The translations under genes and the position numbers were made by a program. This document shows, one piece after another, positions 41,163-63,875 of a DNA stretch of 64,000 nucleotides (the stretch's first letter is position 1; each line of letters begins with the position of its first letter). Origin of the DNA: Nitrospirota bacterium. Its GTDB lineage: Bacteria; Nitrospirota; Nitrospiria; 2-01-FULL-66-17. Where the stretch lies: positions 288,001 to 352,000 of the forward strand of contig JBMOMC010000002.1 in the NCBI GenBank assembly GCA_049325335.1, given 5' to 3'. The notes below the pieces were generated by a model. That model saw only the letters and a program-made list of their open reading frames with translations, searched no databases and was not told the origin of the DNA.

Positions 41163-41731
41163 GAATGTTCACGCTGGTGGTGGCATCGGTCGTGATCCTC
41201 CTGGTCGGGGCGGGGTGGTGGTGGGTGACGTCCAGCCGGGCGGAGATGGCCCTTCCGGTTCGCGTCGGAGAAACTGCCCCGGACTTTACCCTGAACGATC
41301 AGAACGGGATGCCGGTGACGCTGAGCGATTACTGGGGGCGGCAGACCGTGGTGTTGTATTTCTATCCCAAAGACAGCACGCCGGGATGCACCAAACAAGC
41401 CTGTAGTTTCCGCGACGACTTGTCCCGGTTCGAGGCGCTCAACGCCCGGGTGCTCGGGGTCAGCGTAGACGGATTGGACTCGCATCGCACGTTCGCCGAG
41501 AAATACAAACTGACCTTCCCGATCCTCAGCGACGAAGGTCATCGCGTCAGCCGCGCGTATGGCGTATTGAGCGAACTTGCGGGGTTTCGTTACGCCAAGA
41601 GGACCACGTTCGTGATTGGCCATGACGGCGTGATCCGCCGTATTTTCACCGACGTCGATCCCAAAGACCATGCCACGGAACTCCTGCAGTATTTGAAGAC
41701 TCTGGTCCCCGACCCCCCCACTGAAGGCTAG
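41159..41731 (+). CDS. bcp: BCP/PrxQ peroxiredoxin with N-terminal membrane anchor or signal
   Basis: [16 protein letters not shown]; hydrophobic N-terminus. Confidence 0.88.
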
Positions 41732-41975
41732 GAGCCTGTCCATGGAAGGCCATCTGCGGCGTTGTCGGTCGGCCTTGCGTGCTCACGTACGACCCAGTAC
41801 GCTGCTTCGCCAAGCGAGCGGAATGTATCATCGACAGCGCCACAAAACGGCGCAGTGCGCTTTCCGCGCTCGAGCCTTGCGACCCCCATTCGAGAACTCC
41901 GATGCCGGAAGTCCCCGAAGGGGGCATCTGACCTTCCCTGAACAGGCTCCAACTCGATATATTCGGACAGGCTCC
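41731..41975. mobile_element. MITE-like non-autonomous element
   Basis: TAGGAGCCTGTCC (41729-41741) and GGACAGGCTCCTA (41965-41977) form a perfect IR including the flanking TA; a 27-bp imperfect IR joins 41731-41757 and 41924-41950; no transposase. Confidence 0.7.
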
Positions 41976-54490: not shown

Positions 54491-54664
54491 GTCGAGCGCA
54501 GGCGGTTTGGTGATCCCGTCGGTTCACCGTCTGACGGCTGCGCGGATCCGACGTTGCTCCGGATCCGTACGCGGCGTCATCGCCAAGTGGACGGCAGATT
54601 ACCTTAATGACGAGGGGTTTGACAAGGGACGATTCCGCGCTCCGCCGCGTCCCGTGCCGGTTTC

Positions 54665-54693
54665 TTGACTTCGACCGGGACGCTGTCTAGAAT
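54665..54693 (+). promoter_or_regulatory. Putative sigma70 promoter for tadA-tRNA-ffs-dnaX
   Basis: TTGACT-17bp-TAGAAT. Confidence 0.6.
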
Positions 54694-54734
54694 GGCGTGC
54701 TTTGCGGAACGCGCACGATACAACCCCCGTGTCC

Positions 54735-55250
54735 ATGAACGAGCCGTGGATGGCGCTGGCGCTTGAAGAAGCGCGGGCCGCCGCGCGCGAGGGGGAAGCC
54801 CCGGTGGGCGCGATCGTGGTGGTCGACGGCGAGGTGGCGGCTCGCGGTCGCAATCGGCGCGAGACGGACCGTGATCCTACCGCGCACGCGGAACTGATCG
54901 CCGTGCGCGACGCGGCTGAACACCTTGGCCGCTGGCGGCTCTCCGGCGCGACCGTCTACGTGACGTTGGAGCCGTGTCCGATGTGCGCGGGCGCGCTGAT
55001 TCTGGCGCGGGTTGATCGGATCGTGTTCGGGGCGTACGACCCCAAGGCCGGCGCCTGTGGGTCGGTCGTGGATCTGTTTGAATCGGGACGGTTCAACCAC
55101 CGGCCCGAGATCGTCGGCGGCGTGATGGCCGAGGCGTGCGGGCGGGTGTTGTCGGAGTTTTTTGAGGGACGACGGGGACAACAAAAGATAAAAATCGAAA
55201 GATCTGGCAGCCTCGGCACTGGGACTCGTGCCTCCGTTGCCCTACGCTAG
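54735..55250 (+). CDS. tadA: tRNA adenosine(34) deaminase
   Basis: DPTAHAE, TLEPCPMC, DPKAGA, RFNH. Confidence 0.93.
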   Translation: MNEPWMALALEEARAAAREGEAPVGAIVVVDGEVAARGRNRRETDRDPTAHAELIAVRDAAEHLGRWRLSGATVYVTLEPCPMCAGALILARVDRIVFGAYDPKAGACGSVVDLFESGRFNHRPEIVGGVMAEACGRVLSEFFEGRRGQQKIKIERSGSLGTGTRASVALR

Positions 55251-55470
55251 CGAGGATGGGAGAGATGGCCGAGTCCGGTCGAAGGCGTCTGACTCGAAAT
55301 CAGATGTGGGGGAAACTCCACCGGGGGTTCAAATCCCTCTCTCTCCGCCATTCCTCGCTCGCGTAGGGCAACGCAGCGCCTGATTTGCTTCGCCACCTGT
55401 AGGGACGGAGGCATGGGCATATCGCCCCTGAGCGGGGCGATGCAGGTTCCCGGCGCGAGGCTGCAAGATC
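55201..55470 (+). repeat. Inverted-repeat wrapper around tRNA-Ser(CGA), unit 1
   Basis: 55201-55257 is complementary to 55351-55372 and 55447-55470; homologous to unit 2. Confidence 0.8.
55259..55350 (+). tRNA. tRNA-Ser (anticodon CGA)
   Basis: GGAGAGA/TCTCTCC acceptor, TCTGA-CTCGAAA-TCAGA anticodon arm, long variable arm, GGTTCAAATCC, encoded CCA. Confidence 0.95.
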
Positions 55471-55492
55471 AGTTTGGTTTTTTTTAGAACAT

Positions 55493-55699
55493 AAAGATTT
55501 GGCAGCCTCGGCACCGGAAACCGTGCCTCCGTTGCCCTTCGCTAGCGCGGTTGGGAGAGATGTCCGAGCCCGGCTGAAGGAGCACGACTGGAAATCGTGT
55601 AGGGGGCCAAAAGTCTCCTCGGGGGTTCAAATCCCCCTCTCTCCGCCGAACCGCGCTTGCGCAGCGCCTGAAGTCCCGGCGCGAGGTTGCAAGGTCTTT
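55493..55699 (+). repeat. Inverted-repeat wrapper around tRNA-Ser(GGA), unit 2
   Basis: 55493-55552 is complementary to 55649-55661 and 55674-55699; the upstream arm is 50/58 identical to unit 1. Confidence 0.8.
55554..55645 (+). tRNA. tRNA-Ser (anticodon GGA)
   Basis: GGAGAGA/TCTCTCC acceptor, CACGA-CTGGAAA-TCGTG anticodon arm, long variable arm; CCA not encoded (CCG). Confidence 0.95.
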
Positions 55700-55741
55700 A
55701 GGGGTTGCATTTGCTGTGTCTTTATCCAACTTCGCAAAAGA

Positions 55742-55840
55742 AGACCGGGCCCTGTGCGACAGGAGTCTTCGAACCCCGCCAGGTCCGGAAGGAAGCAACG
55801 GTAAGGAGATCCTCCTGGGTGCCGCAGACCAGCCTGGTCT
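55742..55840 (+). ncRNA. ffs: Signal recognition particle RNA (small 4.5S type)
   Basis: CAGGTCCGGAAGGAAGCAAC helix-8 core, closing stem AGACCGGG/CCTGGTCT, canonical position upstream of dnaX. Confidence 0.92.
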
Positions 55841-55853
55841 TCTTTCTTTGTTC

Positions 55854-55897
55854 GTGACGGGGCGCGACGCCCGCTATCGGGCGTCCGCCTCCGTCAC
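55854..55897. repeat. Hairpin between ffs and dnaX
   Basis: GTGACGG...GACGCCCG-CTAT-CGGGCGTC...CCGTCAC. Confidence 0.55.
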
Positions 55898-55917
55898 GCG
55901 GCATTAACAGCCGACCC

Positions 55918-57687
55918 ATGACCTACCAGATTCTCTCGCGCAAATGGCGGCCCCAGGGCTTCGACGAAGTCGTGGGGCAGGAGCACGTGACGCGCACGTT
56001 GATCAACGCGATTACGTCGAGTCGTCTGGCGCAGGCGTACCTATTCTCGGGCCCGCGCGGCGTGGGCAAGACCACCACGGCGCGGATCCTCGCCAAGGCA
56101 CTCAATTGCTCGGCCGCGTCGCAGCCCACGCCCACGCCCTGCGGGGAGTGCGCGTCGTGTCGCGACATCGCGGCCGGCACGTCGGTGGACGTGCTGGAGA
56201 TCGACGGTGCCTCGAACACGGGCGTGGACGACGTCCGCGAGTTGCGCGAGCAGGTCAAATACGTCCCGTTCCAAGGGCGGTACAAGGTCTATATCATCGA
56301 TGAAGTCCACATGTTGTCCAACGCGGCCTTCAACGCGTTGCTCAAGACGTTGGAGGAGCCGCCGCCGCACCTGGTCTTCTTGTTCGCCACGACCGAGTCG
56401 CACAAGATTTTGCCGACGATTCTCTCGCGGTGCCAGCACTTTCGTCTCAAGCGGGTGGCGCGGTTGGACATGATGGGTCGGCTGGGGACGATCGCCGCCG
56501 CGGAAGGCCTGGCGATCGAAGAGCGCGCGTTGGCGTTGATCGCCAAGGTGTCCGAGGGCAGCGTGCGCGACGCACTCAGTATCGTCGATCAAGTGGTGGC
56601 CGCGAGCGGCGCTACCGTACGGGAGGCCGACGTATCCGCGCTGTTGGGCGTGGTGGATCGCCAGGGATTCTCCGCGCTCACCCGGGCGATCCGTGAGAAA
56701 GACGCGGCCGGCGCGATTGCCGCGGCGCGCGCGTTGTTCGATTACGGTCACGATGTCAAATTGTTGTGCGCCGATCTGGTCGAATACGTTCGGCACCTCA
56801 CGAGCCTCAAAGTGGGGGGGCGGGCCGCGGAGACGCTGGACCTGCCGCGGGAAGAAGTCGACGAATTGCGCGAGGCGGCGGCATCGTTCGAACTGGATGA
56901 ACTACAGCGGTTGTTCACAGTGTTTACTCAGGCGCAGGAGGACATCCGGTTCGCGATGTATCCGCCGTTTACGTTGGAAATGGCGGTGGTCAAGGCCACG
57001 CGGGTGGTGGCGCTGGAACCCATCGAGCGGTTGATCGCGCGCGTGGATGCGTTGGGTGGGGGCGATCGAGGAAGCGCCCCGCCGCCGGCGCAACGCGCGG
57101 CTCCCGCGCGACGGGAGACGGCGCCTCCGTCCGTCCACGCGGCTCCGCCCCGAACCGTCGAGCCGACGGTCGATCCGCGTTCCGCGGCGCCTCCGTCGGG
57201 CGGTCGAGGTGCGCTTGAGCCGGATCGGTTGTGGGGGCTGGTAATGCAGCGTGTCGCGGAGGAAAAACCCAATTTGGAATCGTACCTCCGCAGTGGCCGG
57301 CCGGTCGCCGCCGGGGCTGATGAATTGATTGTCGAATACGAGCCGGCGGATGTGTGGGCCGCTGACCTGGCGGCGCGGGAGGACAACCGATCGTACGTGG
57401 CGCGGGTCCTCCGCGAGGCGACGGGGTGCGAGGTGGCGTTCCGGATCCGTCGTCGTGGAGGCTCCTCGGCCGGTGGCGCGCGTCCGACCGCGGCGGCTGA
57501 ACGTCCGGCCCCGCGCGCGGGCGCCGAGAAGGTTTCATCCGGTAGCGCGAGTCCGTCGCGCCGGGCCGTGGTGGCCGATGTGGTGGCCCACCCGGTGGTG
57601 AAGGACGTGCTGGAGGTGTTCGACGGCGAGGTGATGGACGTTCGTGATTTGAACGAATCAGGGGAACGAGGGGACGGCGAAGAATGA
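55918..57687 (+). CDS. dnaX: DNA polymerase III gamma/tau subunit
   Basis: RKWRPQ, GPRGVGKTT, Zn module, EIDGASN, DEVHML, SRC. Confidence 0.96.
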   Translation: MTYQILSRKWRPQGFDEVVGQEHVTRTLINAITSSRLAQAYLFSGPRGVGKTTTARILAKALNCSAASQPTPTPCGECASCRDIAAGTSVDVLEIDGASNTGVDDVRELREQVKYVPFQGRYKVYIIDEVHMLSNAAFNALLKTLEEPPPHLVFLFATTESHKILPTILSRCQHFRLKRVARLDMMGRLGTIAAAEGLAIEERALALIAKVSEGSVRDALSIVDQVVAASGATVREADVSALLGVVDRQGFSALTRAIREKDAAGAIAAARALFDYGHDVKLLCADLVEYVRHLTSLKVGGRAAETLDLPREEVDELREAAASFELDELQRLFTVFTQAQEDIRFAMYPPFTLEMAVVKATRVVALEPIERLIARVDALGGGDRGSAPPPAQRAAPARRETAPPSVHAAPPRTVEPTVDPRSAAPPSGGRGALEPDRLWGLVMQRVAEEKPNLESYLRSGRPVAAGADELIVEYEPADVWAADLAAREDNRSYVARVLREATGCEVAFRIRRRGGSSAGGARPTAAAERPAPRAGAEKVSSGSASPSRRAVVADVVAHPVVKDVLEVFDGEVMDVRDLNESGERGDGEE

Positions 57688-63770: not shown

Positions 63771-63843
63771 TCCCCGGTAGCTCAGCTGGCAGAGCGGTCG
63801 GCTGTTAACCGATTGGTCGCTGGTTCGAATCCGGCCCGGGGAG
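63771..63843 (+). tRNA. tRNA-Asn (anticodon GTT)
   Basis: TCCCCGG/CCGGGGA acceptor, GTCGG-CTGTTAA-CCGAT anticodon arm, GGTTCGAATCC. Confidence 0.95.
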
Positions 63844-63875
63844 CATCTGATGCCGGTTAACCCGGCGTCATTCTT

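Follow-up and report, generated by a model that had tools for sequence, protein, structure and literature searches.

Inverted arms of two tRNA-Ser genes in a Nitrospirota genome are copies of a dispersed hairpin repeat sited at tRNA ends and Shine-Dalgarno sites

In the window analysed here, a stretch of 64,000 nucleotides from a Nitrospirota bacterium, two different tRNA-Ser genes are each enclosed by a pair of long inverted-repeat arms. The earlier note on this DNA read the arrangement as an undescribed tRNA cassette, which could be an RNase III-like processing scaffold, a switch with alternative pairings, or a REP/MITE-derived element that captures or targets tRNA genes. The question raised by the locus is whether the two arms of a tRNA gene form a unit and, if not, what placed them there.

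Much of what the note described is present in the sequence. The left arms of the two Ser units are identical at 50 of 58 positions (86.2%), each has an imperfect complement 3′ of its tRNA, and in neither unit did any of 200 shuffles fold as well (z −7.6 for unit 1 and −2.9 for unit 2). The proximal matches AGCGAGGA/TCCTCGCT and AGCGCGGTT/AACCGCGCT were found, as were the G-A mismatch common to both units, the G-U pairs of unit 2, and the insert of about 63 nt and the T8 run of unit 1 (Table 1). The shared mismatch derives from two stem subtypes (TCTGGC on the left, TCTTGC on the right), both also seen in the related genome G001. Alignments showed that the right arm of unit 2 is shorter by about 10 nt. 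tRNA-Asn has no arm.

Table 1. Features of the tadA-Ser-Ser-ffs region in window coordinates
Feature	Position	Strand	Basis or remark
tadA (presumed tRNA adenosine deaminase)	54702..55250	+	ORF list; Pfam MafB19-deam, dCMP_cyt_deam_1
A copy 1; hairpin, tail ending GCGAGG, 3 nt before tRNA +1	55193..55258	folded strand +	CM C2:343193-343258, E 5e-16
tRNA-Ser(CGA), CCA encoded	55259..55350	+	ARAGORN; Rfam RF00005
A copy 2; long form, repeat B in loop, tail 2 nt from CCA	55351..55478	folded strand -	C2:343362-343478
Repeat B; ~63-bp hairpin repeat nested in loop of A copy 2, TT on both sides	55387..55449		Best of 10 genome profile matches
T8 run, distal end of A copy 2	55478..55485	+	Consensus scan: no terminator called there
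A copy 3; tail GCGCGG, 3 nt before tRNA +1	55488..55553	folded strand +	CM C2:343488-343553, E 1e-15
tRNA-Ser(GGA), gene end CCG not CCA, at junction with A copy 4	55554..55647	+	ARAGORN; Rfam RF00005
A copy 4; ~10-nt deletion in outer stem	55648..55704	folded strand -	CM C2:343648-343704, E 2e-5
ffs, small SRP RNA	55743..55842	+	Rfam RF00169, 72.6 bits

Anatomy of repeat A and its setting at the Ser locus

Our analysis showed that each arm is one copy of a non-coding dispersed repeat of about 65 bp, here called A. Read on its folded strand, A has GTCAA, then about 5 nt and TCT. A stem of 6 bp that includes a G-T wobble follows, then a 3×3 internal loop that is conserved (CTC/TRC), a second stem of 5 bp and a loop of roughly 9 nt. 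The tail is 14 nt long and ends in GCGAGG, GCGCGG or GCTCGG, while in some copies the hairpin tail is a different one. The 5′ end is exactly GTCAA in 84 of 187 copies, and a GTCAA-type end is intact in most. The 3′ junction of A is fixed, and the 5′ side is fuzzy and A-rich. No Rfam family matched A at its gathering score; the best over the arms was sX4, with 25.9 bits against a cut-off of 70.

The fold lies within the single arm. Pairing was found in 96.9% of 420 cells, against 75.1% after shuffling and 36–46% in slid-partner controls, and RNAalifold recovered 10 of the 11 within-arm pairs. Within-arm double changes numbered 69, against 20.3 in shuffled data (reached in 0 of 500 shuffles), a count that is not a probability because the structure was derived from the same, mutually related sequences. 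A strand-neutral parse of G-T against A-C on the folded strand gave 48:3 in 48 copies at tRNA 3′ ends, 30:0 in 29 copies at tRNA 5′ ends, and 40:1 in 42 copies at Shine-Dalgarno (SD) sites, counts much of which comes from one inherited wobble and which are thus not independent events. Six wobble types at five positions were all on the same strand of A. Since the wobbles keep to one strand at every site class, the folded strand is antisense to the tRNA at 3′ ends.

The window also holds genes that we take to be dnaX, ybaB and recR, and the name tadA is likewise our assumption from protein family and gene order. The tadA frame traverses A copy 1 and stops at a TAG in its tail, which adds about 20 residues; the same was seen in G001. 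The junction of tRNA-Ser(GGA) with A copy 4 lies at 55644-55650, and the G001 orthologue encodes CCA. Because the window gene ends in CCG, its 3′ end must be repaired post-transcriptionally. A consensus scan placed a promoter-like site upstream of tadA, and the sole terminator-like site in 54500-56000 was 3′ of ffs. Since there is no terminator-like site from the tadA promoter to ffs, the arms of both Ser genes are probably transcribed. Contigs of the RNA run covered the cassette in 55259-55350 and 55554-55661 only.

Distribution, siting and turnover

BLAST and profile searches found the arm dispersed throughout the source genome. With a covariance model built from 39 copies, 199 matches were obtained in all seven genomes of this Nitrospirota family (19, 31, 12, 31, 57, 17, and 32 copies); the order comprises the same seven genomes. 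None of 149 other genomes of the phylum outside the family gave a match, in a screen that scored 34 candidates per genome and could miss diverged forms. In a species-wide genome collection the arm pattern was found in nine stretches, all from Nitrospirae/Nitrospirota MAGs. A metagenome scan for the left end of A gave 47 stretches, four of them chance-like, and none of the 47 had a gene inside the hairpin loop. Viral contigs gave 25 pattern matches, none of which scores as A (best E 0.098), and plasmid and phage records contained no match to A.

In the source genome, the 22 A elements comprised nine at tRNA/tmRNA 5′ ends, six at tRNA 3′ ends, five at SD sites, and two outer tandem copies (from 23 rows, of which one is just half, the left one, of a long copy; the class of one SD copy and of one tandem copy was assigned by eye). 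All 22 point the same way at their targets. Fifteen of them are at tRNA/tmRNA ends, where at most 2.2% would be expected (94 of 4266 G-rich intergenic sites; binomial 2e-20), a crude estimate, the intergenic fraction having been crudely masked. No replication-strand bias was seen by local GC skew (10 vs 12 of the 22 copies). Two tail-only fragments of A were also found in this genome, one at tRNA-Ile and one at an SD site. A 3.9-kb contig of the source genome (G000), possibly foreign, carries a second Ile-Ala rRNA spacer (C5:205-383) unlike that of contig C2, and its tRNAs were excluded from the tRNA-end count.

A wider set of 224 non-redundant rows was drawn from the source genome, fetched loci of relatives (part of the 199 matches, mostly high-scoring), and metagenome loci. 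It held 43 copies at 5′ ends, 58 at 3′ ends, 50 at SD sites, 22 in tandem and 51 without class, many of which were by eye nested, tandem, or at missed tRNA or SD sites. With a class window of −4 to +8 nt, the tail lay 0–4 nt from the tRNA in 43 of 43 5′ copies and 1–3 nt from it in 52 of 58 3′ copies. In all target classes, which are tRNA/tmRNA 5′ ends (sense), tRNA 3′ ends (antisense) and SD sites, the tail ends 0–4 nt from its G-rich target and is followed by G-rich sequence. The other end of A lies within 12 nt of a tRNA in 5 of 194 copies only, three of which fill a short spacer with their tail on the next tRNA. The earlier note had held that arms widely occurring with no tRNA association would speak against its reading; this was half borne out, as about a quarter of the copies are at SD sites.

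At two metagenome loci, L154 and L174, the tail of A provides the sole SD-like GAGG, 4 nt before the start codon, and at L154 the repeat fills the whole spacer from the upstream stop codon. At L058:1412-1625 in G002, A is found at the T-loop of a partial tRNA-Pro(CGG) duplicate (5′ ~55 nt), which is followed by the intact gene.

The copies turn over, nest in one another, and duplicate in tandem. Similarity of same-site copies from different genera was 0.654 (46 pairs), against 0.667 for different sites (2233 pairs; p 0.75), orthologous copies within a genus were slightly closer (0.717 in 30 pairs, against 0.664; p 0.015), and so were copies within one genome (0.678; p 0.002), the pairs in these comparisons not being independent. 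Three unrelated sites, found in two genomes, carried one and the same nested A-in-A copy, SD-site copies from unrelated places shared 94–96% identity, and the 3′ copies of the two Ser genes in G001 were 98% identical. The similarity pattern, together with identical copies at unrelated sites, supports copying between sites, by insertion or conversion. No filled/empty site pair of A was seen in close strains. A long target-site duplication, which had been suggested by eye, proved not to be general (overall p 0.25; SD class p 0.006; none in the tRNA classes).

One reading of these sites is that A has been domesticated by its host. Single copies would then be kept as protein-binding or RNA-end structures in highly expressed operons, serving as leader stabilisers before tRNAs and SD sites and as 3′ protectors after tRNAs, and would be homogenised by gene conversion. 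Some sites are occupied in most genomes, and such wide occupancy, as at the Glu(TTC) 5′ site in six of the seven genomes, also fits retention for function. Copies lie upstream of core genes, whose translations resemble what we take to be groES/EL, rpoB, nusA, ftsA/Z, tuf, rpsJ and metK. The sole SD before ATG provided by the tail at L154 and L174, the slight closeness of orthologous copies within a genus, and the probable transcription of the arms point the same way. However, transcripts at tRNA 3′ ends contain the strand with A-C (48:3), which means that host RNA is not what the fold is tuned to, and A is confined to one family and patchy between its genomes. We consider domestication unlikely as the explanation.

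The two arms of a tRNA gene

Among 83 arm-bearing tRNA loci, 26 had the 5′ arm only, 40 had the 3′ arm only, and 17 had both. In the 17 double-armed loci an arm was no more similar to its partner than to 3′ copies drawn at random from its genome (p 0.77–0.87), and in 16 loci the partner duplexes showed no excess of strength (−71.9 vs −71.7 ± 3.0 kcal/mol for random). At the Ser locus of G001, both Ser genes have a GCGG-type left tail against a GAGG-type right tail, and a variant 5′ tail was matched on the 3′ side at one of seven loci, namely Ser(GGA) of the window. The co-variation between the two arms of a tRNA, on which the idea of a cassette had been built, was thus not borne out: it was found inside each arm and not across arms, and 66 of the 83 loci are single-armed. 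An RNase III-type flanking stem would have both arms as a rule and co-variation across the gene. Neither was seen here, which leaves the RNase III-like scaffold unsupported.

The switch had been proposed on the ground that the insert of unit 1 is an alternative partner of the left arm. This pairing is indeed strong, at −62.8 kcal/mol against −31.7 to −50.4 for the 11 other B-like sequences compared, one of which is probably not B, and against −44 and −47 for the pair in G001. However, the partner is a second repeat, B, nested in A. It had 10 profile matches in the source genome, is nested in A at four sites, and is missing from the corresponding position of A copy 2 in G001-G006. In relatives B was found at other sites, between tRNA and A, or in reversed orientation, and one copy in G001 lies within a distal copy after the other Ser gene. 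Contigs from two DNA runs join across B, although other organisms or paralogous copies may be their source. We read the complementarity of B to the left arm as a local, unconserved event such as template switching, and not as a switch.

Other repeats are also present in G000. A terminal-inverted-repeat element of about 130 bp occurs genome-wide (core 13-mer 39 times; one copy near 41700-41850 of the window), often directly 3′ of stop codons and with B-like repeats nested inside, and GTAG REPs were found as well (core about 33 times).

That paired arms were selected around tRNAs as an RNase III-like processing stem or a switch is, of all the explanations weighed here, the one to which we give the slightest chance, and as an origin it is largely refuted. 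In the predicted precursor, folding with cross-arm pairs allowed was favoured over folding with them forbidden (−157 vs −116 kcal/mol in unit 1; −101 vs −85 kcal/mol in unit 2), and four gene types among Ser, Met and Glu are double-armed in at least two genomes. However, both arms are present at 17 of 83 loci only, cross-arm covariation and an excess in partner duplexes were not found, the G001 tails are mismatched at both Ser genes, and the insert is a mobile repeat. The long stems around the tRNAs look like a by-product of two inverted A copies. Since folding across the arms is predicted to prevail in the precursor RNA, the stem may have a secondary effect on tRNA processing.

A further explanation is spread without a dedicated enzyme, in which template switching at the palindrome of the tRNA acceptor stem and recombination between similar tRNA ends would copy the flanks. 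This predicts the inward polarity. In the source genome the tails match at both Ser genes, and the complementarity of B to the left arm is unusually high. In G001 the two Ser genes have nearly identical 3′ copies, and the tandem copies and the partial tRNA-Pro duplication at L058 would represent local slippage. On the other hand, partner arms are no more alike than random and the variant 5′ tail is matched at one of seven loci. Copies at SD sites, identical copies at unrelated genes, and the one-strand fold are left unaccounted for. We regard spread of this kind as quite improbable.

The third proposal, a REP/MITE-like element, is supported with respect to targeting of tRNA genes, though not with respect to their capture. 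A sits beside these genes, and the order tadA-Ser-Ser-ffs is kept in relatives without some of the arms, as in G002, G003 and G005, where some are absent at the Ser locus.

Relation to known elements and mode of spread

REP, BIME and REPIN sequences, with their TnpA-REP (RAYT) enzymes, are described in the available text of two sources as short extragenic imperfect hairpins with a conserved bulge and one active strand, which are lineage-specific, form nested or tandem mosaics, and occur as inverted pairs foldable into larger stems, in all of which A resembles them (PMC8266576, PMC3733652). According to the available text of PMC8266576, what is bound is the imperfect hairpin that just one of the two REP strands forms when single-stranded, and the bulge is indispensable. 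A is likewise an extragenic imperfect hairpin in many copies, with one folded and putatively active strand, as judged by the asymmetry of G-T over A-C in all site classes. Unlike REPs, A is longer, has a conserved 14-nt 3′ tail, numbers tens of copies, and has no GTAG/CGTC at the hairpin foot, where GTCT, ATCT, CTCT, TTCT, ACCT, and ATTT cover 176 of 187 copies. In the same texts REPs are found mainly downstream of coding regions (PMC8266576, PMC3733652), whereas A is found at tRNA ends and SD sites.

No tnpA-REP gene flanked by A was found at 30 Y1_Tnp loci (seven genomes, ~1.5 kb), and incomplete genomes may hide one. The four Y1/RAYT genes of the source genome carry their own terminal repeats. 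At the 135 element loci there was one Y1 gene, truncated and with its own different end, and no GIY-YIG gene. Conversely, A was nearby at one of 54 loci with Y1-transposase, four-helix-bundle or GIY-YIG genes, where one of two A matches was at a tRNA end. No small GIY-YIG gene flanked by A was seen; at L238, A occurs at an adjacent tRNA-Gly and again at a distance of about 1 kb, and does not bracket the gene in either place.

Two other kinds of locus were noted in this search. L075-L078 and L191 hold Y1 transposase genes with C-terminal extensions and their own short terminal repeats unrelated to A, which we take to be TIRYT-like. At L240:1352-1764 in G003, a small GIY-YIG gene and a different hairpin lie directly 3′ of a tRNA-Asn, the orthologue of the gene at 63771-63844 of the window, where the source genome has no such gene.

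Elements of the IS200/IS605 type have guide bases on the 5′ side of their hairpin, which pair with the cleavage site and should co-vary with it, and their target is found 5′ rather than 3′ of the folded strand. No such co-variation with the tail was seen for the corresponding bases of A: TCTC occurs with GAGG (53), TCGG (36) and GCGG (6), and TCTG and TCTT also occur with GAGG. No terminal inverted repeats were found in A, whose ends are GTCAA... and ...GCGAGG; a 6-nt match, TCTCGC/GCGAGG, is internal and shows no co-variation.

The NTS/SRM hairpins that go with Ssn (GIY-YIG cd10448) resemble A in being oriented hairpins with non-palindromic flanks and a GTC-type 5′ start, and are recognised as single-stranded DNA on one strand, as given in the available text of PMC11893778. 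However, none of 187 A copies matches the published SRM pattern (Ssn motif), the element loci had no GIY-YIG gene, and the word tRNA is absent from the main text of that paper. MITEs with terminal inverted repeats (Correia, ERIC, RUP), REP2 of Neisseria and IR-A of Borrelia are, like A, small non-coding intergenic repeats with RNA-like folds, and REP2 and IR-A lie directly upstream of genes and carry a ribosome-binding site (PMC3184786, available text). A differs from them in having no conserved terminal inverted repeats, no general long target duplication and no ATG of its own, and in being antisense at tRNA 3′ ends.

Lineage-specific palindromic repeat families are well known, according to the available parts of these sources (PMC3733652, PMC3184786, PMC2700814, PMC2996986, PMC3543383). 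Multicopy intergenic families of Geobacter and Pelobacter share with A their lineage specificity, palindromic form and non-random clustering between genes, and unlike A show no tRNA-end polarity in the available text, although supplementary neighbour tables may bear on this point (PMC2700814, PMC2996986, PMC3543383). The part of PMC5737381 available held nothing bearing on A. In the literature covered, with subscription papers largely outside its scope, no description was found of A, nor of repeats that point inward at both ends of tRNA genes and at SD sites.

We favour, with moderate confidence, the explanation that A is a non-autonomous REP/BIME-like element, copied as a folded single strand and docking tail-first at tRNA ends and SD sites. 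A would have no gene and be copied as a folded single DNA strand by a putative trans-acting enzyme, which by analogy with REP/TnpA-REP and NTS/Ssn may be of the HUH tyrosine transposase type or a small single-stranded-DNA nuclease. The 3′ tail would be joined to G-rich sequence exposed at heavily transcribed genes, and copies inside genes would be removed by selection. A tRNA gene reads GG at either end on the strand that points inward, so that two independent insertions would give an inverted pair, and such a pair would make the precursor RNA fold into a long stem as a by-product. Sequence preference alone cannot produce the enrichment at tRNA ends.

SINE-like retro-copying would take the folded strand to be RNA, reverse-transcribed from the 3′ tail with a primer ending in CC, either a tRNA 3′ end or a nicked target. 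The G-U-type wobbles, the fixed 3′ junction with a fuzzy, A-rich 5′ side, the tail-only fragments at tRNA-Ile and one SD site, and the GAGG/CC microhomology at junctions are consistent with it. However, reverse transcriptase genes were found in only two of the seven family genomes and show no link to A, most copies have an intact GTCAA-type 5′ end, and long target duplication is not general. Retro-copying is very improbable in our view.

We would put forward only tentatively, as rather doubtful, a broader alternative to the REP/BIME-like element, namely that A belongs, without a gene of its own, to an undescribed class of bacterial mobile elements, the enzyme of which would be directed to exact tRNA/tmRNA ends and SD sites. 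For yeast Ty3 and Dictyostelium TRE5/TRE3, too, position and orientation relative to the tRNA gene are fixed, on whichever side of it they lie. These elements code for enzymes of their own and owe their tethering to Pol III factors, which bacteria, to our knowledge, do not have; A is like them in behaviour only. Other Nitrospirota families have unrelated repeats of their own, some heptamer-rich, that abut tRNA ends with the hairpin inward (L008-L012, L014-L017, L019, L292, L293, L295, L296). The few extra copies fetched for G010 and G007 were also at tRNA ends with the hairpin inward, and BLAST of these repeats gave 5 and 4 matches only, mostly weak. These inward-pointing repeats hint at a general behaviour.

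For screens of RNA motifs, the locus is a caution that two inverted self-folding repeats flanking a tRNA can pass for a processing stem with co-variation. The locus also bears on the spread of REP-like repeats and on their choice of sites, which in A is unusually sharp, with one end placed 0–4 nt from tRNA ends or SD sites, on either strand. For an enzyme hunt, A offers a defined substrate (folded strand, bulge and tail) and defined junctions, and such an enzyme would be a harmless-site inserter. If the broader class were real, A would be a bacterial counterpart of the tRNA-gene-targeted elements of eukaryotes, and the unrelated inward repeats at tRNA ends in the two other Nitrospirota families would be further members sharing one targeting mechanism.
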